The position numbers were made by a program, and so were the translations under genes. Below the pieces are notes generated by a model. The model was not told the DNA's origin. It did no database searches and saw nothing but the letters and a program-made list of their open reading frames with translations. Shown in pieces: positions 22,393-59,783 of a stretch of 64,000 nt of DNA; position 1 is the first letter of the stretch; each line of letters opens with the position of its first letter. This stretch comes from Clostridia bacterium (GTDB lineage: Bacteria; Bacillota; Clostridia; UBA1212): contig JAGAKK010000052.1 in the NCBI GenBank assembly GCA_017625675.1, positions 50,225-114,224 of the forward strand, given 5' to 3'.

Positions 22393-22397
22393 GAGGT

Positions 22398-22460
22398 AAG
22401 CCACAGCCTCTGACACAGGTGAGCCACAGCCTCTGACGCTGTGGCTCACCTGTGTTGGCT
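22398..22460. repeat. REP-like repeat, copy 4 (nested/double)
   Basis: AGGTGAGCCACAGCCTCTGACGCTGTGGCTCACCT (22417..22451), with an extra upstream half-copy AAGCCACAGCCTCTGACACAGG. Confidence 0.85.
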
Positions 22461-22463
22461 ACA

Positions 22464-22578
22464 CGGAACCGAAGTGCTACTAAAAAACAAAAAATCTTAT
22501 ATTTAACGTGTTTTTTGACGTGAGTCAGGGGGCAGGTCACTGACTCATGCAAGGACAGGACCTTGACTCATGCTCTGA
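22464..22578 (-). repeat. Modular TGAGTCA-palindrome element, copy B1 (reverse orientation)
   Basis: GGAACCGAAGTGCTAC is the reverse complement of module C. Palindrome TGAGTCAGGGGGCAGGTCACTGACTCA at 22521..22547. Degenerate half-sites at 22558..22578. Confidence 0.8.
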
Positions 22579-22622
22579 CTTATGAGATTTGCTGAAAATT
22601 TTACGAAAAATTTATCAAGCAG

Positions 22623-26116: not shown

Positions 26117-26188
26117 GGAGCCACAGCGTCAGACGCTGTGGCTCCTTCATTATCAGACGCTGTGGCTCCTTCAGAGGCTGTTGCTCCC
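26117..26188. repeat. REP-like repeat, copy 5 (one full copy plus two partial tandem copies)
   Basis: GGAGCCACAGCGTCAGACGCTGTGGCTCC, then TCAGACGCTGTGGCTCC, then TTCAGAGGCTGTTGCTCCC. Confidence 0.85.
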
Positions 26189-34531: not shown

Positions 34532-34621
34532 TGAGTCAGGGACCTGCCCCCTGACTCATCGGGCGCGAAGCCTTACGGGGAAACGGTTTTTAAAAAAACC
34601 AGTAGCACTTCGGTTCCGCAG
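34532..34621 (+). repeat. Modular TGAGTCA-palindrome element, copy B2 (forward)
   Basis: Palindrome TGAGTCAGGGACCTGCCCCCTGACTCA at 34532..34558. Module 2 is GCGAAGCCTTACGGGGAAACGGTTT. Module 3 is GTAGCACTTCGGTTCCGCAG. Confidence 0.85.
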
Positions 34622-34699
34622 AATACCCCCGGCGCAGCATAATTTACTTGACAAAAGTTGTTTATTATGGTATTTTTGACATTGTGAACTGAATAATGT

Positions 34700-34990
34700 A
34701 TCAAAAAGGCATTGACGGAGAAAGTAGCCGCAGTTGAAAACTACAGCGAGCAGGTGGCAGTGAAAGACCTGTGTGAGTATGGTTGCGAAGCGAAGATCAC
34801 TCCTGAGCCGCAGCGCGAAAGTTCTGTTATCGTGGTATTGGCGCCCCGAAAAAGAATTATTAGCGCCCGCCGGAATCCCTCCGTGAAAGGGACTCATGTG
34901 TTAGCATGCAGCAAGGGTGGTACAGCGAGAATATTAACGGATTTTCGTCCCGAGCGCAATTGCATCGTAGGAGACGAAGGTCCTTTTTTG
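34700..34990 (+). promoter_or_regulatory. T-box riboswitch leader (Ile specifier AUC) controlling ileS
   Basis: Stem I GGAGAAAGTAGC and CAGCGAGCAGGTGGCAGTGAAAG. Specifier GAAG-ATC-A at 34796-34798. T-box sequence AAGGGTGGTACAGCGAG at 34913..34929. Terminator GGATTTTCGTCCCG...GGAGACGAAGGTCC followed by TTTTTTG (34938..34990). TTGACA hexamers at 34648 and 34676. Confidence 0.85.
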
Positions 34991-38161: not shown

Positions 38162-38218
38162 GGAAAATAGAAAAAGAGTGTAGCCGGTAGACGGAACTGT
38201 TGTGCTACACAAAGAAAT

Positions 38219-40905: not shown

Positions 40906-41018
40906 TTGAGTCAGGTCTCCGCTTCTTTTGAGTCAGGGACCTGCCCCCTGACTCATGGGCCGCGAAGCCTTACAGGGAAACGGTTTTGCGAAAATTGGGT
41001 GGCACTTTGGTTCCGCAG
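40906..41018 (+). repeat. Modular TGAGTCA-palindrome element, copy B3 (forward)
   Basis: Half-site TTGAGTCAGGTCTCC at 40906..40920; palindrome at 40929..40955. Module 2 is GCGAAGCCTTACAGGGAAACGGTTT. Module 3 is GGTGGCACTTTGGTTCCGCAG. Confidence 0.85.
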
Positions 41019-41100
41019 ATTCGCTGAAAGAAATCACTTGATAAAACAAAAGGGAAATGATACCATTGTAGGAAAGAACTTTTGGGTGGGAGCGTTACCG

Positions 41101-43629
41101 ATGAAAAAGTCAAAGAAATTTGTTGTGTGCGGAATTGTTGCATGCGTTGCAGGTATTGTTTTCGGAATTGCGGTTGCACTATGCGGCTTTGCGAGAGCAC
41201 AAGGAGCCGTTGTCTCGAAAGCAGAAGGAATCACGCAGGATTGCGGCATTATCGTTGGCGTTGCAGAGCAATGGTATGCAAAAGAAGCAGAGTTTCAGTC
41301 TCCGATATCCTACCACAGCCCCTTTTACGACGTGGACTTTGATTTTGTTTTCACCCACAGAGAAAGCGGCACAAAGCTTAAAATCCCTGCGTTCTGGGAT
41401 GGGGACAACACTTTCAAGGTTCGTTTTGCATTGACGGAGCTCGGCGAATGGAATTACACGATACGTTGCTCTGATGAAAGCAACGGCCTTAACGGCGCGC
41501 AAGGAAACGTCACCTGCACGGCATACACAGGAGACCACGATATATACAAGCGCGGTTTCGTAAAGCCAACAGGTAGATATTTTTCCTACGCAGACGGCAC
41601 GCCGTTTTTCTATTTGGGGGACACCCATTGGCATATGGCCCTTGAGGACATTGACCACCCCGAAACACAGGCAGACGGCACTGTTGCCAGCCGGTTTGAA
41701 TATACGCTGATGAAGCGAAAAGAACAAGGCTTTACCGTAATTCAATCCGAGCCCTTGGGGCATTATGTAAAGGACAACAATTATTTTCAAGACATTTTTA
41801 AAAAGAAATTTAACAAGACCCAGTTGGAAAGATTTCAGCAATACGACAAGTATTTTAAAATGATTGCCGATATGGGCTTTGTACACGCCAATGCACAGCT
41901 TGGCTACCCTGATACGTTGGGCGACGTTATTTACAAAATTTCCGTTGACCATTTGCAAAGGCTTTGTCGCTACTGGGTGGCAAGGTACAGTGCCTACCCG
42001 GTAATGTGGACCTTAGCCCAGGAATGTGATAACGACTACTATTACGGCTCTGCCCAGGTTCAGTTCACGGACGAGAACAATCCCTGGAAGGATGTTGCCG
42101 CCTATATGCACAAATACGATCCATACGGACACCCTATGACAGCGCATCAGGAAAACAGCGGTAATACCGTTGCCTCAAACTCTGCGTTTAAGGACGTTGA
42201 AGGGCATAACTGGTGGGCATCCCAGATCAACTACAACTGGAGTGACGGAACACATTTTAACGATTATAAAGATTATTGGGTGCGCGGCAACGGCAAGCCT
42301 GCTATATTGTACGAAGGGGCCTACGACCACTATTGGACGGGGACCATCGGCGCAAGGCTTCAAGGCTGGATGGCTTTTCTCAACGGTATGTACGGCTATG
42401 GCTACGGATCGCAAAAGATATGGAGCGCTAATGACGATCACGGCGTTTGGGCCGGAGCCTATGCAGAGACCCCGATAAATACGGGTTTAGAAGTCATTAC
42501 CGCAAAAGACCAAAAAATAACATGGCAAGAAAGTCTGCAACTGCCTGCTGCCACGCAACTTTCTTATATGAAGAATTTTTTGATTGAGCATCAATGGCAG
42601 AATCTGGACCCCTGTTTTGAATTTCAGGAATACTTTTTACCGGACGAAAGCATTAACAACAGATACGCCGCAGCCCACGACAACAACGATATGATTATCG
42701 TATATTTTTACAACGATTCGACGGCCTCCGGAACGCTTAAACACCTTGCGGACGGCAAAACCTACAAATGCAGGTGGTTTGACCCAGAGACAGGCTCTTA
42801 CGTTAAGGAATTTTATGCCGTAGGCAATGAAGACAACCTTCTTTATTTAGGAGAAAAACCCGGTCAAGGCCATTATGTCTTTTCTGCGGTAATATGCGAC
42901 GAGTCTTCTGCCACGCAACCTATAACAGAGGCGGCCCCCATTCCCAAGGGCAATGACAAGCTCTTTATCACGCTTGGTATCATTGCTGCGGTGACAATCA
43001 TTATCGCTGTAATATCAGGGGTAATTTTCCGCAAAAAAAATACTGCTTCACGAAAACGTCTTCGTTCTTCTGTCAGAAAAGAAATGCTTGCCCTGCGAAA
43101 AAACACTCCTCCGGAACTTCAAGAGGCTGAGAGCAAGGCGATTTTTGAAAAAATTTACGCGATGCCGGAATATGCTGCTGCGACGGAGGTCTTCCTTTAT
43201 GCTTCCGTTAATGGTGAGGTGGCGACGGAAAATTTTGCAAAAAAAGCATTGGCGGACGGAAAGAAGCTTGCCTACCCCGTAAGCGAAAAAGGCTGCTCAG
43301 ATATGGAATTTTACTATGTAAACGACCTTTCTGAGCTGACACCCGGTTTTATGAAAATACCGGAACCAATGGCTTCCGATGATAATATTGCAATACCTTC
43401 TACCGAGCGCCCGGCCATAATTATCGTACCCGGCGTTGCCTTCGACAAAAACCGCAATCGTCTGGGCTACGGCGCAGGTTATTATGACAAATACCTTGCA
43501 ATTCACGGCAATGCTTTCACAAAAACAATTGCGGTCTCTTACAGTTTTCAGATGCTTGAAAAACTTCCTGCGGAGAGCCACGACATAAATCCTGACGTTG
43601 TGGTAACGGGAAATAGGATGATTGAGTAA
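41101..43629 (+). CDS. Fusion: DUF5060/DUF4038 (GH140-like) ectodomain, TM helix, 5-formyltetrahydrofolate cyclo-ligase domain
   Basis: ORF 40906..43629; start placed at MKKSKKFVVCGIV (41101) after repeat DNA. WDGDNTFKVRFALTELGEWNY and DGTPFFYLGDTHWHM. TM LFITLGIIAAVTIIIAVISGVIF. C-terminal PGVAFDKNRNRLGYGAGYYDKYL. Confidence 0.75.
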   Translation: MKKSKKFVVCGIVACVAGIVFGIAVALCGFARAQGAVVSKAEGITQDCGIIVGVAEQWYAKEAEFQSPISYHSPFYDVDFDFVFTHRESGTKLKIPAFWDGDNTFKVRFALTELGEWNYTIRCSDESNGLNGAQGNVTCTAYTGDHDIYKRGFVKPTGRYFSYADGTPFFYLGDTHWHMALEDIDHPETQADGTVASRFEYTLMKRKEQGFTVIQSEPLGHYVKDNNYFQDIFKKKFNKTQLERFQQYDKYFKMIADMGFVHANAQLGYPDTLGDVIYKISVDHLQRLCRYWVARYSAYPVMWTLAQECDNDYYYGSAQVQFTDENNPWKDVAAYMHKYDPYGHPMTAHQENSGNTVASNSAFKDVEGHNWWASQINYNWSDGTHFNDYKDYWVRGNGKPAILYEGAYDHYWTGTIGARLQGWMAFLNGMYGYGYGSQKIWSANDDHGVWAGAYAETPINTGLEVITAKDQKITWQESLQLPAATQLSYMKNFLIEHQWQNLDPCFEFQEYFLPDESINNRYAAAHDNNDMIIVYFYNDSTASGTLKHLADGKTYKCRWFDPETGSYVKEFYAVGNEDNLLYLGEKPGQGHYVFSAVICDESSATQPITEAAPIPKGNDKLFITLGIIAAVTIIIAVISGVIFRKKNTASRKRLRSSVRKEMLALRKNTPPELQEAESKAIFEKIYAMPEYAAATEVFLYASVNGEVATENFAKKALADGKKLAYPVSEKGCSDMEFYYVNDLSELTPGFMKIPEPMASDDNIAIPSTERPAIIIVPGVAFDKNRNRLGYGAGYYDKYLAIHGNAFTKTIAVSYSFQMLEKLPAESHDINPDVVVTGNRMIE

Positions 43630-44767: not shown

Positions 44768-44805
44768 AAAACCCCGAAGCCTTCACGGTTTTCGGGGTTT
44801 TGTTT
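44768..44805 (+). terminator. Rho-independent terminator after rpsI
   Basis: AAAACCCCGAA...TTCGGGGTTTTGTTT. Confidence 0.85.
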
Positions 44806-44808
44806 ATG

Positions 44809-45717
44809 CTAAAAATTCTGCATAATTTTTTTATATTGAATAATAAATTTTTCTATTGCTCTTTCAGTTTTAAAATATCGTTTTCCTTTTCCGAGAGGTC
44901 TTATATCTTCTATTGTTGCATCGTCCTTGTCGCATTCATAAATTCCGTATTCATCATATATTTTAAACTTCAAAGCTTCAAACTTTGCATAATCTTCCGT
45001 TGTATAAATATCAGGGGATATCCATATCCGTTTAAGCTTTGGTATGTTTATCAGATCGTCAATATTATTGTCCTGTGCAGCAACACCCGAAAGAACTAAA
45101 CTATCGAGATCCGGCATTTCTTTCAGAAAAGAAAACGTTGGGATAACAGTTTTGCCCAGTTGAGAAATATGAATAGTTAAGCCTAAATGCCTTAAATTTT
45201 TTGCTTTTTTTATCGCTGTTAGCTCAGGGGCATTAGCGCCTAACTTAGTTTCTAAAACATCAAGAGCAGGGGTCTTTGACATATCCCAAAGAGTATCTTT
45301 TGCGCCAAGGCTAATGTATACGGTCTGGAGTTGTGTTAATTTTTCAAGTGCGTAATAATTTGTGGGGTTAGCACTGCTTATCCAAATCGTTTTGGTGTTG
45401 GCAGGTAAATTTTCAGCAACACAGTTCAGTTCCTCTGTACTCTTAACATTAATAACAAATATTTCTTTGTTTGAAAAATCATTAGTATAATGACCATTTC
45501 CAAAATAAAAACCTATATTATGCCTAAAATAAGGGCAGTCTTTACACTTATACAGGTATTCTGCATACTTGTCCCACACTGAATTTTTCAAAAAACCTTG
45601 ATTAAAAAATTCTTCTGCGCAACTAACAATTTTTTTATTTTCAGGAGAGCAATATAGTTCGTGAGCAAAAAAAGACAGCGACTCGTTAAATGCAATGTCA
45701 TAAAACTCGTTATTCAT
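44809..45717 (-). CDS. Hypothetical cytoplasmic protein with leucine-rich-repeat-like C-terminal half
   Basis: ORF 44809..45735; start placed at MNNEFYD (45717). LRR-like LRHLGLTIHISQLGKTVIPTFSFLKEMPDLDSLVLSG...IPKLKRIWIS. AT-rich. Confidence 0.5.
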   Translation of the reverse strand: MNNEFYDIAFNESLSFFAHELYCSPENKKIVSCAEEFFNQGFLKNSVWDKYAEYLYKCKDCPYFRHNIGFYFGNGHYTNDFSNKEIFVINVKSTEELNCVAENLPANTKTIWISSANPTNYYALEKLTQLQTVYISLGAKDTLWDMSKTPALDVLETKLGANAPELTAIKKAKNLRHLGLTIHISQLGKTVIPTFSFLKEMPDLDSLVLSGVAAQDNNIDDLINIPKLKRIWISPDIYTTEDYAKFEALKFKIYDEYGIYECDKDDATIEDIRPLGKGKRYFKTERAIEKFIIQYKKIMQNF

Positions 45718-45780
45718 TATGCACCTCGTAGGCAAAAATTTATTTATTAAATTATATTATAAATTATTTAAACCTTCAAT

Positions 45781-45807
45781 GAGCCACATCCTCTGACGCT
45801 GTGACCC
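45781..45807. repeat. REP-like repeat, copy 6 (degenerate)
   Basis: GAGCCACATCCTCTGACGCTGTGACCC. Confidence 0.6.
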
Positions 45808-45814
45808 ATTTAAT

Positions 45815-46294
45815 TTACCAAGTCTTTTCGTAGCATAAGTTATTCCAACGATATACGATTTTTGATGCAGGAATTTCGAGTTGACACTCATAATGAAAAG
45901 GCTCTTTTTCAAAAAGAAGCCAACCTTTTACCAATTGCTCATTGTTTCCTTTATATTGATATTGATATAAAAATTCAAGACTATAAGTATTGTTGTTTAT
46001 AAGACGGACTAATTCTTCAAGAGTCCATTCTTCACGAATAATCTTTCCAAAAATATTTTTCCGGAAAACATAGATATTGACGTCATCCTCTAAATAATAG
46101 TCAACTTGTGAACAATCTGTGCGCACCGTTTCGGAAGAATAGTTTGCGTGATGTAACGGAGTAACCCAAAAGCCTTTTTCAAAATAAAAGGAAAGGATTC
46201 CATTGTCATACCGAGTTCTGCCGGCACAGCAATCGTGTAACGATAAGACAGAATCATCTGTATCAATATGCGTATAGGTTTTCTGTTCCATCAC
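45815..46294 (-). CDS. Hypothetical protein
   Basis: 159-aa ORF abutting the stop of the upstream gene. I recognise no motif. Confidence 0.55.
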   Translation of the reverse strand: MMEQKTYTHIDTDDSVLSLHDCCAGRTRYDNGILSFYFEKGFWVTPLHHANYSSETVRTDCSQVDYYLEDDVNIYVFRKNIFGKIIREEWTLEELVRLINNNTYSLEFLYQYQYKGNNEQLVKGWLLFEKEPFHYECQLEIPASKIVYRWNNLCYEKTW

Positions 46295-46768
46295 TCATTT
46301 CGCCTTTCTATAAACTCTTTTACAACCCAGGTGATTTTCCATTAAATTACACAATCTAGTTTCATCTGTTTCTTCCTTTGGAATCGGCTTCTTTAAGATC
46401 CTTCGCACAACGCAAGAAAAGAAAAAACACACCTCAAGAAAGATTAATATGGGAAGGAATATTATAAAAATAAACGCTTCTTCAATCTTATTAATAATTC
46501 TCTTTATTCCTGTTTCATTTGTATACGGGTCTATATACTTAATGGTGCCGCAAAAGGTGATTTTGTCAGCAAACTCTGTTATGGTCGGAATAAACCAATA
46601 TCCGCCGGAATGACCGCCGCGAGCAACACCAAAACGAATTTCGTTCTCAGAAAGTTCAACTATATAGTCGTCAATATAGAATATCCGGCGTCTGTCATCA
46701 GGGCCTTTTATTTGCATCAAAAACATTTCTTTTGTCCCCGGAAATTCAAACGTATACTGCTTTGCCAC
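46295..46768 (-). CDS. Hypothetical membrane protein (one or two TM)
   Basis: 157-aa ORF with central hydrophobic segment FIFIIFLPILIFLEVCFFFSCVV. Confidence 0.55.
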   Translation of the reverse strand: MAKQYTFEFPGTKEMFLMQIKGPDDRRRIFYIDDYIVELSENEIRFGVARGGHSGGYWFIPTITEFADKITFCGTIKYIDPYTNETGIKRIINKIEEAFIFIIFLPILIFLEVCFFFSCVVRRILKKPIPKEETDETRLCNLMENHLGCKRVYRKAK

Positions 46769-46846
46769 AAAACCACCACCTTGTTAACACACGATAATTC
46801 ACAAAAACGTTAAGTGCATTATACCCTAAGCTCTTAAAATTTGCAA

Positions 46847-46883
46847 GGGAGGAGCCACAGCGTCAGACGCTGTGGCTCCTCCC
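46847..46883. repeat. REP-like repeat, copy 7 (stem extended to 16 bp)
   Basis: GGGAGGAGCCACAGCG-TCAGA-CGCTGTGGCTCCTCCC. Confidence 0.9.
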
Positions 46884-46961
46884 TTGATTTTCGTTATATA
46901 TATGCTATACTATAGACATAGAGGAACAAATAATTTATAAAGTGGAAAGGACGGATACGAT

Positions 46962-47867
46962 ATGAAAAAATTGTACTGTATTGGGCTTGCATTATTGCTT
47001 TGCTTAAGTATTTGCGGCTGTAATAAGGTTCCCCGTGTGTCGGACAATAACGCCGAAACAATTCGCCTTGAACATTCCGGTCAATTACAGGGCGATGTGG
47101 TAGAAGTTTTTGCAGACGGACTATCTATGAAAGTTTCCAGTTGTAACACCGATGAAGTTGAATATTCCGGAGATATCGTGTACGTTATTACCGATGAAAC
47201 GGACTGGTGTGTCGAAGATGAAATTGTCGTAGATTTTTACGAAGCTAAAATACCTCATGACGAAAGTAAACCAATGACCGTTGTTGCAAACTTGATTAAA
47301 GCGCCCTCGTATGTCGCTAAGCCCATAATCTACCTATACCCCGAAGCTCCGACAGAGTGTTCAGTCGAGGTCTCTCTTAACGGGCAGTTGACATGCACAT
47401 ACCCGGATCACGGCATTAACGGTTGGCAAAAATTTACGGCATATCCTGACGGCACATTGACATTTCCTGATGGCAAGGAATATTATGCTCTTTATTGGGA
47501 AGGCCTCCAAAATACACAATGGGACTTTTCCGAGGGTTGGTGTGTACGAGGAGAAGACACTGCAAAATTTCTTGAATGGGCTCTTGCTGAGCAAGGGTTA
47601 ACACAGCGCGAGGCCAACGAGTTTATCGTTTATTGGTTGCCACTTATGCAAGACAATCCATACAACGTTATTTCCTTCCAGACCACCGCCTACACGGATG
47701 GCGCAGTTTTGGAAATATCACCAACACCCGACAGCCTCCTTCGCGTATTTATGGCGTACTACCCCTCCGATAATGAAGTGGAGCTTGCGCCTCAATCTTT
47801 TGATAACTTTACAAGACAAGGATTTACAGCAGTAGAATGGGGCGGCTGCCAGACATCAAAACCTTAA
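46962..47867 (+). CDS. Lipoprotein of unknown function
   Basis: Signal peptide with lipobox LSICGC; 301 aa. Confidence 0.7.
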   Translation: MKKLYCIGLALLLCLSICGCNKVPRVSDNNAETIRLEHSGQLQGDVVEVFADGLSMKVSSCNTDEVEYSGDIVYVITDETDWCVEDEIVVDFYEAKIPHDESKPMTVVANLIKAPSYVAKPIIYLYPEAPTECSVEVSLNGQLTCTYPDHGINGWQKFTAYPDGTLTFPDGKEYYALYWEGLQNTQWDFSEGWCVRGEDTAKFLEWALAEQGLTQREANEFIVYWLPLMQDNPYNVISFQTTAYTDGAVLEISPTPDSLLRVFMAYYPSDNEVELAPQSFDNFTRQGFTAVEWGGCQTSKP

Positions 47868-47907
47868 GTTGCCTTTTTAAAGCAGATTGTTTGACTTCTG
47901 ATTGTCA

Positions 47908-50780: not shown

Positions 50781-50808
50781 GAATTAATTAATAAGAACAA
50801 ACAAAAAC

Positions 50809-50843
50809 GCTCTTTACCATAAACCGGTAAAGAGCATTTTTTT
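50809..50843. terminator. Bidirectional terminator
   Basis: GCTCTTTACC...GGTAAAGAGC, with an A-run before and a T-run after. Confidence 0.8.
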
Positions 50844-50863
50844 ACTTAATCATCAAATATCAC

Positions 50864-51658
50864 TTAACTGAGCAAGGCTCTGTCGTTTGTGAATTCTGCG
50901 CCGCTTGCCTCAGTAAACTTTGCAAGGAGCGTTTCAACGGTGAGCTTCTGCTTCTCCTCGCCCTTTATGTCAAGGACAATCTTGCCAGCGTTCATCATTA
51001 TTATACGGTTTCCGTGGGCAATGGCATCACGCATATTATGGGTTACCATAAGGGCGGTAAGGCCGTTTTCCTTTATGAGCTTGTCGGTAATCTCAAGCAC
51101 CTTTGCCGCAGTCTTTGGGTCAAGAGCCGCTGTATGCTCGTCAAGAAGCAAGAGCTTAGGCTTTTTCATTGCCGCCATAAGAAGTGTTATCGCCTGACGC
51201 TGACCGCCTGAAAGCAAGCCCATTTTTGTGGTAAGTCTGTCCTCAAGGCCCAGATCAAGAATCTTTAATTGCTCACGATATCTCTCTCTGTCCTTTCCGG
51301 TAATGGCCCAGCGTACACCACGGCAATGGCCTCTGCTGTCTGCCACCGACATATTTTCTTCTACCCACATATCTGACGCAGTACCCATTCTGGGATCCTG
51401 AAAAACGCGTCCTATAAACTTTGCCCTTTTGTACTCAGGCAGCCTCGTTACGTCCACGCCGTCAATTATTACCTGGCCCTCATCCACGGGATATGCGCCG
51501 GCAACAATATTAAGCATAGTTGACTTTCCTGCGCCGTTGCCTCCGATAACGGTAACGAAATCACCGTCTTCCAGAACAAGAGAAAGTCCGTCGAACACCT
51601 TTTTCTCATTAACGGTGCCTTCATTGAAGGTCTTATGAATGTCTCTGATCTCAAGCAT
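50864..51658 (-). CDS. ABC transporter ATP-binding protein
   Basis: ORF 50864..51721; start placed at MLEIRDIHKTF (51658). Walker A GGNGAGKST, signature LSGGQRQ, Walker B LLLLDEHT. Confidence 0.9.
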   Translation of the reverse strand: MLEIRDIHKTFNEGTVNEKKVFDGLSLVLEDGDFVTVIGGNGAGKSTMLNIVAGAYPVDEGQVIIDGVDVTRLPEYKRAKFIGRVFQDPRMGTASDMWVEENMSVADSRGHCRGVRWAITGKDRERYREQLKILDLGLEDRLTTKMGLLSGGQRQAITLLMAAMKKPKLLLLDEHTAALDPKTAAKVLEITDKLIKENGLTALMVTHNMRDAIAHGNRIIMMNAGKIVLDIKGEEKQKLTVETLLAKFTEASGAEFTNDRALLS

Positions 51659-52583
51659 TCTGCGCCCCTCCCTTCTTCTTTTTTCCTTTAACCAGGTAGG
51701 TTTTAAGATGAGGAATTCCAAGGAAAAGCGCTACCACAATAGCCGAAAGCATTTTGAGAAGCTCTGTGGGAAGTCCTATGAATACAACGGTCTGGAATAC
51801 CAGCCAATAAATAATTGCGCCGCAAACTACAAACAACAATCTCAATGCAAAATTTGTGGTCTTTCGCTGGAACAATGCTTCACCGATAATAACCGCGGCA
51901 AGTCCAATTACGATTGCACCTCTTCCGAAGTTGATATCAGATGCTCCCTGCTGCTGCGCCAGAAGCGCGCCGGACAAGGCAACTACGCCGTTTGACAACG
52001 CAAGGCCAAGCACCTTTGTAAAGTTTGTGTTAATGCCCTGGGCACGGCTCATCTCAAGGTTGCAGCCGGTACTTCTGAGAGACATTCCAAGCTCTGTACC
52101 GAAGAACCAATACAATATCAAAATAACCACAGCGCAAAAACCGATTAAAATGATCAAGGACTTAACGCGCTCACTTTCTCCCGAGGAGATAAGCACCTTG
52201 TCAGCATACTTGAATCTGCTGAGGGCAACGTTTGCTTTGCCGTCCATTATCAGAAGGTTTACGGACCAGAGCATAAGCTGGGTCAATATTCCCGCCAGAA
52301 TCGCAGGTATTCCAAGAAGCGTATGTAAAAGCCCCGTTACAAGCCCTGCCAGCATTCCCGCCGCCATCGCGCAAAGAATCGCAAACCACACGTTAACGCC
52401 ATTGGTTATAAGCACAGCGCAAACCGCCATACCGGTACAAATAGAACCGTCTACTGTGAGATCGGCAACGTCAAGGATTTTAAACGTAATGTAAACCCCT
52501 ATTGCCATAAGGCCCCAGGCAAGTCCCTGCGCAACAGCACCGGGAATCGTACCGAGCCAATTCATGATAATTTCCATAATCAA
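51651..52583 (-). CDS. ABC transporter permease
   Basis: 310 aa with about 9 TM segments. 8-nt overlap with the ATPase gene. Confidence 0.85.
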   Translation of the reverse strand: MIMEIIMNWLGTIPGAVAQGLAWGLMAIGVYITFKILDVADLTVDGSICTGMAVCAVLITNGVNVWFAILCAMAAGMLAGLVTGLLHTLLGIPAILAGILTQLMLWSVNLLIMDGKANVALSRFKYADKVLISSGESERVKSLIILIGFCAVVILILYWFFGTELGMSLRSTGCNLEMSRAQGINTNFTKVLGLALSNGVVALSGALLAQQQGASDINFGRGAIVIGLAAVIIGEALFQRKTTNFALRLLFVVCGAIIYWLVFQTVVFIGLPTELLKMLSAIVVALFLGIPHLKTYLVKGKKKKGGAQNA

Positions 52584-52604
52584 ATTTTCCCTTTTAGTTT
52601 TTTA

Positions 52605-53594
52605 TTACTCAGCAGCAATCGCTGTATAGCCCTTAGCTTCAAGAGCCTCTGTGTCAACGCCGAGCTCGTTGCATCTGTCTGCGTTGTATTTCTTAGTAAA
52701 CGTAGCAGCATACTCGATCTTCATCTCGGAAACCTTAGCCTCACCCTTGAGGATCTTCGCAGCCATCTTTCCTGTCGCCACGCCAAGGTCGTAGTAGCTG
52801 ATAGAAAGTGTTGCCACACCGCAACCCTTACAGATGCCTTCCTCGCCTGCAATAACGGGAGTGTCACCAATTACACCGCTGATTGTCTCAGTGCAGCTTG
52901 CCGCAGTGTTATCAGTAGGAATGTAGATAACGTCAGCAAAGGTTGCTGCAGCAGATGCAACAGAAACAACATCGTTGGAGTCTGTAAAGGAGTAATCCTT
53001 GATGTTTTCGTTGCTAAGACCTTTTTCTACAAGATATTTTCTTACTTCTTTAACCTGATATGCGGAGTTAGGCTCAGAGCTACAGAAAAGAAGCGCAACC
53101 TTCTCAGCCTCGGGATAAAGGTCTACAAGCATTTCAGCCTGCTTGTCAAGGGGCGCCAGGTCACTTGTTCCGGATACGTTGCCGCCTACAAGGCCGTCAA
53201 AATCGTCAATACCCAAAGCAACGCCGTACTCGGTAATGGATGTTCCCAATACAGGGATCGTCTCAGTTCCGTTTACAGCCGCCTGAAGCGCAGGGGTCGC
53301 ATTGGCCATAATAAGGTCAACCTTCTTGTTTACAAAGTTATTTACAATCGTTGTACATGTTTCAGGGCTGTTACTTGCATTTTCGTTAAGAACCTCTACG
53401 TTCTCTTCGCCAAGCTCTGTTTTCAGAGTGTCAATAAATCCCTGTGTGGCCGCGTCAAGAGCAGGATGCTGAACCAACTGGCAAACACCTACAGTATATT
53501 TTCCGTCATCTTTGCTTCCGCCTTCGCAGCCTGTCAAAGCAAACATTGTTACGCACATTACCATTGCAAGGACGATGCTTACTATTTTTTTCAT
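52605..53594 (-). CDS. ABC transporter substrate-binding lipoprotein (ABC_sub_bind / TrpX-like family)
   Basis: Lipobox LTGCEG; YTVGVCQLVQHPALDAATQGF is typical of this family. Substrate unknown. Confidence 0.75.
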   Translation of the reverse strand: MKKIVSIVLAMVMCVTMFALTGCEGGSKDDGKYTVGVCQLVQHPALDAATQGFIDTLKTELGEENVEVLNENASNSPETCTTIVNNFVNKKVDLIMANATPALQAAVNGTETIPVLGTSITEYGVALGIDDFDGLVGGNVSGTSDLAPLDKQAEMLVDLYPEAEKVALLFCSSEPNSAYQVKEVRKYLVEKGLSNENIKDYSFTDSNDVVSVASAAATFADVIYIPTDNTAASCTETISGVIGDTPVIAGEEGICKGCGVATLSISYYDLGVATGKMAAKILKGEAKVSEMKIEYAATFTKKYNADRCNELGVDTEALEAKGYTAIAAE

Positions 53595-53673
53595 AATAAA
53601 ACTCCTTTAATAAAAATATAAACACAAAATAGTCATATTATCGGGCACAATCGCTTTACCACGATAATATGGT

Positions 53674-53702
53674 ATTGTATTACTCCCGTCCCTCAATGTC
53701 AA
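53674..53702 (-). promoter_or_regulatory. Sigma-A-like promoter for the ABC operon
   Basis: Minus strand: TTGACA, 17 nt, TACAAT. The palindrome CATATTATCG-N18-CGATAATATG (53634..53671) overlaps the predicted +1. Confidence 0.55.
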
Positions 53703-53719
53703 TATTTTTTGCACAAAAA

Positions 53720-54081: not shown

Positions 54082-54813
54082 TTGGAAATAGTAATTTTAA
54101 CAGCTCTGGGCGTAGGTCTTGCCACCGTTTTTGGCAGCATTATCGGCTTCGTCCTGAAAGAAATTCCCCACCGCTTCAACGATCTCCTGCTGGGCTTCGC
54201 CGCAGGCATAATGATGGTAGCCGCCATTCTGGGTCTCATTGTTCCCGCAATGGAAGCAGGCGGCGCAACACAACTTCCCATAGTTTTTCTCGGCATAATG
54301 TGCGGAGCTTTTTGCCTCGTCCTTGCCGACAAGGCATTGCCCTTTCTTCACAACGTTGCAGGCATTAAGGGCTCCGACAACCGCGTAATGCTCCTTGTTC
54401 TCGCCATCGCAATTCACAACTTCCCCGAAGGCATTGCCGCCGGAGTAAGCTTTCTCACCGACAACACCGCAGGCGCCTTGTCCGTGGCAGGCGGAATTGC
54501 CCTCCAGAACATTCCCGAGGGCATGGTAATAATAGCGCCAATGCTATCCGCAGGCATCACCAAAAAACGAGCCTTCCTCATCGCCCTTGGCACAGGCCTC
54601 ACAGAAGTCCTTGGCACACTCCTCGGCTACACCGTAATCCAGCTTTCCGCTGCAATCCTGCCCTTTTCCCTTGCTTTCGCAGGCGGCACGATGCTCTACG
54701 TAATCTGCGACGAAATGATCCCCGAAACTCACTCCCACGGCAACGCCCGCGCCTCCACGTACGCTCTGCTGGCAGGCTTTTGCGTAATGCTGCTAATGGA
54801 TTTTTTGCTGTAA
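54082..54813 (+). CDS. ZIP-family (ZupT-like) divalent metal transporter
   Basis: TTG start after AGGGAGAG. IHNFPEGIAAG and LQNIPEGM motifs; 243 aa. Confidence 0.85.
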   Translation: MEIVILTALGVGLATVFGSIIGFVLKEIPHRFNDLLLGFAAGIMMVAAILGLIVPAMEAGGATQLPIVFLGIMCGAFCLVLADKALPFLHNVAGIKGSDNRVMLLVLAIAIHNFPEGIAAGVSFLTDNTAGALSVAGGIALQNIPEGMVIIAPMLSAGITKKRAFLIALGTGLTEVLGTLLGYTVIQLSAAILPFSLAFAGGTMLYVICDEMIPETHSHGNARASTYALLAGFCVMLLMDFLL

Positions 54814-54817
54814 AATA

Positions 54818-55016
54818 AGTCAAGAGTCCTCAAAACGAGTCAGGAACCTCAAAATGAGTCAGGAACCTCAAAATGAGTCAGGGACCTCAAAATGAGTTAG
54901 GGACCTCAAAAATGAGTCAGGGACCTCGAAATGAGTCAGGGACCTGCCCCCTGACTCATAGGGCGCAAACCCTTTCCCTGAAAGGGTTTGCGAAAAAAAG
55001 GGTGGCACTTCAGTTC
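54818..55016 (+). repeat. Modular TGAGTCA-palindrome element, copy B4 (forward) with expanded 19-bp tandem half-site array
   Basis: About six tandem units of GAGTCAGG(G/A)ACCTCAAAAT (54818..54932). Palindrome at 54932..54958. Module 2 hairpin GCAAACCCTTTC-CCTG-AAAGGGTTTGC. Module 3 GGTGGCACTTCAGTTCCG. Confidence 0.9.
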
Positions 55017-55044
55017 CGTTTGCAAAAAAAGTTGTTTTAACTAC

Positions 55045-55072
55045 TTGACGGCAACAATTTTTGTGGTATACT
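55045..55072 (+). promoter_or_regulatory. Sigma-A-like promoter for tRNA-Ser
   Basis: TTGACG, 16 nt, TGG-TATACT. Confidence 0.6.
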
Positions 55073-55087
55073 TACAAAGTAGGCTTT

Positions 55088-55179
55088 GGAGATGTACTCA
55101 AGTTGGCTGAAGAGGCGCCCCTGCTAAGGGTGTAGGTCGGGCAACCGGCGCGGAAGTTCAAATCTTCTCATCTCCGCCA
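55088..55179 (+). tRNA. tRNA-Ser (GCU)
   Basis: GGAGATGTACTCAAGTTGGCTGAAGAGGCGCCCCTGCTAAGGGTG...GGAAGTTCAAATCTTCTCATCTCCGCCA. Long variable arm; anticodon loop CTGCTAA. Confidence 0.95.
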
Positions 55180-59692: not shown

Positions 59693-59783
59693 TGAGTCAG
59701 GGGGCAGGTCACTGACTCACGGGGGCATAAAAATGAGACATTGGGAAAGAAGGTCCTTTACGCACCCGTCAATCCTGACTCAT
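59693..59783 (-). repeat. TGAGTCA-palindrome element, copy B5 (reverse orientation; modules 2 and 3 absent)
   Basis: TGAGTCAGGGGGCAGGTCACTGACTCA at 59693..59719. Degenerate half-site CCTGACTCAT at 59774..59783. Confidence 0.8.

Follow-up and report, generated by a model that had tools for sequence, protein, structure and literature searches.

A promoter-adjacent 27-bp palindrome in uncultured gut Clostridia as a candidate REP/BOX-like interspersed repeat

The palindrome, its long form and its partial copies

The 64-kb stretch of Clostridia DNA analysed here (the window) carries five copies, B1 to B5, of the palindrome TGAGTCAG[G/T]GACCTGCCCCCTGACTCA, where none would be expected by chance, and all five are intergenic. 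B1, B2 and B3 lie in divergent gaps, between the genes for a CapF-like epimerase and a CHAP/SH3 hydrolase (B1), a polysaccharide deacetylase and ileS (B2), and a GH5 protein and a GH140-MTHFS protein (B3). The other two are in co-directional gaps, with B4 following a ZIP transporter gene and preceding tRNA-Ser (55088-55179), and B5 between the genes for an 861-aa protein and an alpha/beta hydrolase. No common function links the flanking genes. As a preliminary description made from the sequence had noted, no copy separates convergent genes, and the units downstream of B2, B3 and B4 are the ileS T-box (34703-34955), the GH140 (apiosidase)-MTHFS gene and the tRNA.

Several features of the window stand apart from the palindromes. 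The ileS T-box leader scores 66 bits (E = 4e-12) and is missed by a default Rfam search because this is below the gathering score of 93; it is conserved at the related ileS locus L016. The gene at 41101-43629 fuses an apiosidase-like GH140 domain and 5-formyl-THF cyclo-ligase in one 842-aa ORF; the MTHFS gene is separate in the relatives L016 and L017, and the GH140 part stops at 479 aa in L067. Positions 44800-47900 have a lower GC content (38-41%) and four ORFs (308, 159, 157 and 301 aa) with no Pfam match, and this segment is kept in strain contigs. A 2.9-kb segment with ABC transporter permease and substrate-binding genes (50784-53714) is missing in the orthologous contig L012. The best match of the macro-domain protein in the window is on L022 (ENA WALL22-1 scaffold_467; P0121), a conjugative island with a relaxase, a giant SNF2 helicase and a BREX system that is unconnected with the palindromes.

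A scan with the 27-mer TGAGTCAGGGACCTGCCCCCTGACTCA at up to three mismatches returned exactly five matches in the window and none in 100 dinucleotide shuffles, at the places already given in the preliminary description. B2 (34532-34558), B3 (40929-40955) and B4 (54932-54958) are the exact 27-mer with G at position 9 on the plus strand, and B1 (22521-22547) and B5 (59693-59719) lie on the minus strand with the substitution G9T. The geometry is also as first described, with a 10-bp stem, a 7-nt asymmetric loop and two heptamers 20 bp apart. The half-site GAGTCAGGRMCCT matches the window 12 times against 2.9 expected, and 11 of these matches fall within elements; isolated TGAGTCA heptamers outside the elements are not enriched. 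A link to restriction sites (GAGTC) was rejected, since the pentamer is not depleted outside the elements. Folded as DNA or as RNA, the B2 region forms chiefly the palindrome hairpin, and the RNA minimum free energy of this 101-nt region is -36 kcal/mol (z = -2.7).

Across three genomes we counted 20 copies in unrelated contexts, which depart from the consensus essentially only at G9/T9. All read T, then GAGTCAG...CTGACTC, then A, followed by variable sequence that is often TTT, and similarity between loci stops within a few nucleotides of the palindrome. With a length of 27 nt, five copies in 64 kb and at least 14 contigs of a sister species carrying it, the element has the character of a short extragenic palindrome of the REP kind.

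The element takes two forms, the solo 27-mer and a colinear composite of ~87 nt in which the palindrome is followed by a decaying second hairpin (module 2) and then GGTRGCACTTYRGTTCCG (module 3). Seven long forms (B1-B4 and those on contigs L008, L009 and L012) align colinearly over ~87 nt, and the spacing from palindrome to module 3 is constant in all seven, even where the middle has decayed. A pattern search for module 3, GKRGCACTTYRGTTCCG, gave five window matches against 0.09 expected and bore out its presence in B1 (22464-22480, minus strand), B2 (34602-34618), B3 (40999-41015) and B4 (55002-55018, these three on the plus strand). In B1 it reads GTAGCACTTCGGTTCCG, and the third base is A/G polymorphic between strains. 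A truncated module 3 abuts a palindrome in L006. Most palindromes lack module 3, and the sister-species copies are mostly bare 27-mers. A module-3-like GTAGCACAACAGTTCCG at 38192-38208 (minus strand) is an isolated, weak match with 2 mismatches, situated where the GH5 gene and ileS converge, just past the GH5 gene terminator; it could be either a relic or a chance match.

Module 2 is an intact hairpin in three of the seven long forms, namely B4 (54964-54992, plus strand; 12-13-bp stem, CCT loop), L008 and L012. Outside these it decays without compensation: B2 (34565-34589) and B3 (40962-40986), both on the plus strand, hold one and the same degenerate version, and it is unrecognisable in B1 and L009. 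Such derived states shared at unrelated loci are a signature of copying from a common template. RNAalifold on the long forms returned the palindrome hairpin only and no conserved structure in modules 2 and 3, so the conserved RNA structure contemplated for these modules in the preliminary description was not borne out.

Module 3 (TGGCAC-N5-TTCC) also resembles the sigma54 promoter consensus TGGCAC-N5-TTGC, with its -24 GG and -12 GC, and the palindrome, centred ~60 nt upstream across an A-rich linker, could then be taken as an upstream activator site. The -12 GC is nevertheless absent (TTCC) in six of the seven copies, and the -24 GG reads AG in three of the seven (B1, B2 and L008) and is polymorphic within the species. 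The scarcity of module 3 among the palindromes also speaks against this arrangement, as does a conserved sigma70 promoter past module 3, which is present without the element in L016. We rejected the sigma54 reading of module 3 because it fails the -12 GC and partly the -24 GG, and the promoter-plus-activator arrangement as a whole is hardly credible.

Upstream half-sites had been reported at most copies. At B4 they form a tandem array of 19-nt left-arm units (AAAATGAGTCAGGGACCTC; 54812-54931, plus strand), for which Tandem Repeats Finder gave 54812-54945, period 19, 6.9 copies and 88% matches. B2 has none, and those at B1, B3 and B5 are palindrome copies that have decayed or been duplicated in part. 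At B1, decayed upstream copies TGAGTCAAGGTCCTGTCCTTGCA, preceded by AAGTCAGAGCA, occupy 22548-22583 (minus strand), with a half-site match at 22557-22569 that has 2 mismatches. At B3, a decayed upstream partial copy (TGAGTCAGGTCTCCGCTTCTTT; 40907-40928, plus strand) shows strain SNPs and a 15-nt deletion (L068). Comparison with strain contigs revealed a relic of a second copy at B5 (59734-59782, minus strand): in L036-L038 it is a 27-nt reverse-oriented, slightly mutated second palindrome 14 nt away, and in the window 33 nt stand in place of its interior. B1, B3 and B5 are thus the loci with relics and with nested or adjacent copies.

The B4 array is a variable-number tandem repeat (VNTR) with 1, 4-5 or 6 units in strains with an identical ZIP protein and none in the sister species. 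The half-sites read earlier as possible iterons are therefore units of an unstable array whose length varies among strains. In L037, 12 nt (CCCGTGAGTCA) spanning the left foot of the palindrome have been freshly duplicated in tandem, and the immediate flanks of the palindromes are indel hot spots. These indels could be footprints of slippage at hairpin-forming sequence, which would account for the iteron-like half-sites.

Relaxed searches returned further palindrome variants. One of these, the sister family GTGACAGG[TG]CCTGTCCCCTGTCAC (GTGACAGG..CCTGTCAC), has five copies in sister-species contigs (sites L008:60-235, L005:8344-8368, L006:6-30 and L011:2601-2625) and none in the window. Compared with the main family it has two compensatory arm swaps (pairs 3-25 and 5-23) and retains the CCTG core of the loop, with 90% of cells paired. 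The L008 copy has its own tandem array of 11-nt right-arm units (GCCCCTGTCAC, three to four times). Several palindrome families with covarying stems in one genome are typical of REP-like repeats. A second, unrelated hairpin repeat family, GAGCCACAGCGTCAGAGGCTGTGGCTC, is often followed by a T-run and adjoins palindromes at B1, L010 and L011. Its members lie at 22394-22460 (minus strand) and 26117-26187 in the window, at L010:~895-925, and in L011 and L005; the copy at 26117-26145 scores as a terminator. This is probably the family that the preliminary description had listed first.

Position relative to promoters

Using a consensus scan, we located sigma70-like promoters with an extended -10 past module 3 at 22392-22365 (B1), 34648-34676 (B2), 41038-41066 (B3) and 55045-55072 (B4). 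The solo palindrome of B5 lies 4 nt upstream of a sigma70-like promoter at 59688-59660, and this confirmed the TTGCAA-17-TATAAT promoter proposed earlier. A divergent promoter at 34516-34487 has its -35 hexamer 15 nt to the left of the B2 palindrome.

Across the wider set, a -35-like hexamer starts 4-18 nt beyond one end of the palindrome, on either side, in 11 of 18 cases, where 1.8 are expected. For this comparison a simple -35/-10 matcher was used with random placement within the same intergenic region, and none of 200,000 simulations reached 11. Under a stricter null, in which placement was barred from promoter-to-start-codon stretches and from the first 40 nt past a stop codon, 10 of 15 palindromes were near a -35 against 4.2 expected (P ~6e-4). 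The promoter-proximal bias suspected in the preliminary description is real and statistically strong. Gaps from palindrome to -35 cluster at 6-8 nt within the range of 4-18 nt, a span that precludes strict helical phasing, and are 82-95 nt in the long forms. Among copies in co-directional gaps, seven independent cases have the asymmetric loop oriented like the downstream gene, and one (L003) has it opposed.

The promoters do not belong to the element. In the alignment upstream of ileS, the ACTTGACAAA -35, the -10 and the T-box are conserved in L016, and the whole B2 element is missing there. We therefore rejected a promoter carried by the element. The earlier claim that a -35-like ACTTGAC with a -10 follows the copies holds in that sigma70-like promoters are found at these places; they are resident promoters of the genes rather than part of the repeat. 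When the 27-mer was excised in silico at L003, L013 and L006, a long T-run remained, which suggests that the target may have been a T-tract, of a kind common just upstream of -35 boxes.

The same positions bear on whether the hairpin acts in RNA, as a terminator, read-through insulator or processing and stability signal comparable to E. coli REPs or to CIRCE. The fold is strong (the B2 values above), ATTT follows 7 of the 13 listed solo copies, the L005 copy is inside an operon and overlaps a stop codon, and a terminator-like call falls on the minus strand of the B2 palindrome. That B2 hit is the only one of the five window copies to pass a lenient terminator scan, however, and the long forms are followed by G/C-rich sequence, not a U-tract. 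Most copies are placed past the terminator of the upstream gene and ahead of the next promoter, so they are probably not transcribed. With no Rfam match and no consensus structure beyond the palindrome, we consider an RNA-level role improbable.

Distribution among strains and relatives

For each locus, exact-protein look-ups gave 5-10 contigs of this species from other samples. Every strain contig that reaches a site has the copy there, so all five copies are fixed, and we found no presence/absence polymorphism at the five loci among 5-10 strains. The B1 and B2 palindromes are each invariant in 8 strain contigs, and that of B3 is present in 5. Variable columns number 0 of 135 in the palindromes against 50 of 1586 (3.2%) in the remainder of these intergenic regions (Fisher p = 0.03); module 3, with 2 of 68, is like the background. 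Contigs of the lineage end within 200 nt of a copy in L001, L002, L003, L007, L008, L010, L014, L020 and L062 (short-read contigs), and L007 starts with a fold-back in which the contig start is the reverse complement of sequence past the palindrome. These ends and the fold-back indicate that the repeats interrupt assemblies of this lineage or introduce errors into them.

Gene order around all five copies is identical in every strain contig, which bears on a further reading, namely that the palindromes are core sites at which a site-specific recombinase mediates inversions or deletions between copies. Tyrosine-recombinase core sites have an arm/spacer/arm geometry, and the 10-7-10 arrangement with a strictly identical asymmetric spacer is like theirs; copies are also found in both orientations. 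Deletion between the direct copies B2, B3 and B4 would, however, lose ileS and ribosomal protein genes, no recombinase gene is among the window ORFs scanned, and the rearrangements observed are local slippage-type indels, not exchanges between copies. Given the identical synteny in all strain contigs, recombination between copies was rejected, and we regard a role as recombinase core sites as very improbable.

Beyond the species the element is narrowly distributed. An exact-pattern scan of 185,579 species-representative genomes returned a single contig, from a Candidatus Ornithomonoglobus (Clostridia) MAG, with the copy at the contig end. When 241 million metagenome records were scanned with any base allowed at three loop positions, 14 contigs were returned, all from assembly JAEIGA01 and all with the loop ACCTGCC. 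One of these, L012, is the ortholog of the window at 49.5-56.7 kb (83-88% nucleotide identity, ~87% around B4), and the JAEIGA01 contigs therefore represent a sister species. Searches by blastn against 50,697 phage and 72,556 plasmid records gave no match, and viral contigs had no exact pattern match; a phage, plasmid or viral origin was rejected on these grounds. Rfam 15 placed no family on any copy, at the gathering score or at E<=5. A text search of the literature found the sequence strings in no relevant paper and returned nothing on Monoglobus or Clostridia repeats.

The palindrome of B4 and its L012 ortholog are 26/27 identical (G9T), and this orthologous pair indicates that one copy or more was already in place before the two species separated. 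Other copies are missing at orthologous sites. L016, a syntenic ileS homolog locus (92% amino acid and 81.5% nucleotide identity), and more distant ileS loci have no palindrome, half-site or module 3. B3 is missing at the GH5/GH140 gap in L067/L069 (72-87% nucleotide identity), and B4 is missing downstream of the ZIP homologs in L033-L035 (92% and 76% amino acid identity). At these empty sites the intergenic flanks are too diverged to align and define no exact insertion borders. The comparison points to lineage-specific gain of the element. Since presence/absence polymorphism is lacking within the species, we infer mobility from the between-species comparison only.

The conservation of the palindrome could also mean that it is maintained by selection as a putative operator, insulator or architectural site for a dimeric protein acting from about -50 to -70, with tandem half-sites adding binding units and repeats that perhaps arrived by transposition. 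Hexamers of the -35 type lie near the palindrome significantly often, on either side, and the scan bears out the promoters; this is consistent with such a role, and so are the 0 of 135 variable columns against 3.2% in neighbouring intergenic DNA, the B4/L012 copy kept at 26/27 within flanks that are ~87% identical, the dyad symmetry kept through compensatory swaps in the sister family, and the seven co-oriented copies against one. Yet real operators vary between sites, and here 27 nt including the spacer are near-invariant. The gaps of 4-18 nt to the -35 (82-95 nt in long forms) keep no fixed helical phasing, and the neighbouring genes share no theme. Relatives that retain the promoter also lack the site ahead of ileS and the GH140 gene, the array copy number ranges from 0 to 6 between close strains, which would be odd for a tuned operator, and the hitch-hiking modules 2 and 3 decay freely. 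Of the features expected of the operators of a regulon, then, promoter adjacency is found, and degenerate sites, related neighbours and presence at orthologous promoters are not. The strong promoter-proximal bias keeps the operator or insulator reading viable, and we hold it as a tentative minority possibility.

Comparison with known repeats and significance

We propose that a narrow clade of uncultured gut Clostridia related to Ornithomonoglobus carries, in this palindrome, a new family of REP/BOX-like interspersed repeats that are small and non-autonomous, and put the probability of this reading at roughly one half. The copied unit would be the 27-bp palindrome, alone or heading the ~87-nt composite. 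Among the three roles suggested in the preliminary description, this favours the promoter-associated mobile module (Correia/BOX-like) over an operator or iteron array and an upstream insulator, because the copies are near-identical in unrelated contexts and include subfamilies and relics, a sister family exists, orthologous sites are empty and the neighbouring genes are unrelated. Clustering with the second hairpin repeat family and the lineage-restricted gains also argue for a REP/BOX-like repeat.

Beyond the observed structure, distribution, indel status, subfamilies, VNTR and promoter adjacency of the repeat, we infer a mobilising protein, a target preference and slippage as the cause of the arrays. 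A trans-acting protein would recognise the hairpin or its dyad, with arms that covary between families and a CCTG loop core that is kept. It would have spread the element into T-rich, non-transcribed gaps directly upstream of -35 boxes in at least one burst in the common ancestor of the window and sister species, and afterwards. The copies would now be essentially dormant and fixed. The palindrome would promote replication slippage nearby, leading to gain and loss of tandem partial copies (19-nt, 12-nt and 23-nt units), and any effects on adjacent promoters would be secondary. No transposase or RAYT-like gene, including a Y1 transposase, was found among 20 window ORFs scanned against Pfam, and no duplicated flank that would mark a target-site duplication was seen at 13 solo copies. 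The two ends of the long form do not make a clear inverted repeat (~6/9 over GGAACC by eye).

Proteobacteria (REP/REPIN) and streptococci (BOX, RUP) have well-studied small interspersed palindromic repeats, and REP/REPIN sequences are mobilised by RAYTs, which are IS200/IS605-type Y1 transposases. Like REPs, the present element is a 20-40-nt extragenic palindrome at high density, with several related families per genome in mosaic clusters; it also shares their vertical persistence, a conserved 'master' with one-step variants (here G9/T9) and stems that covary between families. In contrast to REPs, which are found at the 3' ends of transcripts, it is mostly upstream of promoters, and it occurs mostly as single copies rather than the regularly spaced inverted doublets of REPINs, with a reverse-oriented pair only at the B5 locus in L036-L038. 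The REP/RAYT class has a conserved GTAG or CGTC tetranucleotide at one end (PMC3733652), and none of the 20 copies has this tag at either foot. In the passage of that survey that lists phyla with GTAG repeats, Firmicutes are not named, and the strings 'Firmicutes' and 'Clostridi' are absent from its text. With no GTAG/CGTC tag, no doublets and no RAYT in the 20 window ORFs scanned, the element is outside the REP/RAYT class as defined.

Pneumococcal BOX elements are modular and intergenic, contain a variable tandem sub-unit, cluster with other repeats and are apparently dormant, and BOX, RUP and SPRITE of pneumococcus are described as having spread ancestrally and being now largely dormant (PMC3049150). 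The palindrome resembles the BOX elements of S. pneumoniae and S. suis in organisation only, as a modular composite with a strain-variable tandem unit, stem-loops, intergenic location, clustering and apparent dormancy in a Gram-positive lineage. Its variable unit is a 19-nt partial palindrome arm rather than the 45-nt internal boxB, it is mostly a bare 27-mer, and its adjacency to promoters is much tighter.

With Correia elements and other MITEs it shares small size, non-autonomy, terminal dyad symmetry and a position near promoters, which MITEs are able to modulate. Unlike these, it has no internal segment bounded by terminal inverted repeats and no target-site duplication at the 13 solo copies, is not AT-rich and supplies no promoter, since that of ileS pre-exists. 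CIRCE (IR9-N9-IR9), the site for HrcA, is likewise a highly conserved, promoter-associated 27-bp arm-spacer-arm sequence. The sequences differ, however, and CIRCE is placed between the -10 and the start codon, whereas the present element is upstream of the -35, with hitch-hiking modules and decayed copies, and its copies near unrelated genes probably number tens to hundreds (20 counted in three genomes).

The excess conservation of the palindrome and its promoter adjacency are the observations least well explained by a selfish repeat, and both would also be expected of a selected binding site. It is conceivable that a repeat-derived palindrome is now also kept by selection for protein binding, though we regard this as unlikely. 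In its fullest form, which we consider about as unlikely, a mobile repeat would have seeded docking sites that were then domesticated and are selectively maintained for a dedicated host protein, as genome-wide insulator or architectural sites upstream of promoters, with the arrays tuning occupancy between strains.

To our knowledge, small interspersed palindromic repeats have barely been described in gut Clostridia. The perfectly conserved 27-mer can be used as a strain- and species-level marker, and the B4 VNTR suits strain typing in metagenomes. In short-read assemblies of the lineage, contigs also end and fold-back artefacts occur at the palindromes. The features of most interest are the promoter-hugging position, in which the few bases directly ahead of -35 boxes are preferred with strong statistical support, and the fast-changing VNTR flanks. 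Targeting as the cause of this preference would point to a new insertion mechanism directed at DNA upstream of promoters, and selection as the cause would point to a new DNA-binding factor acting at many promoters.
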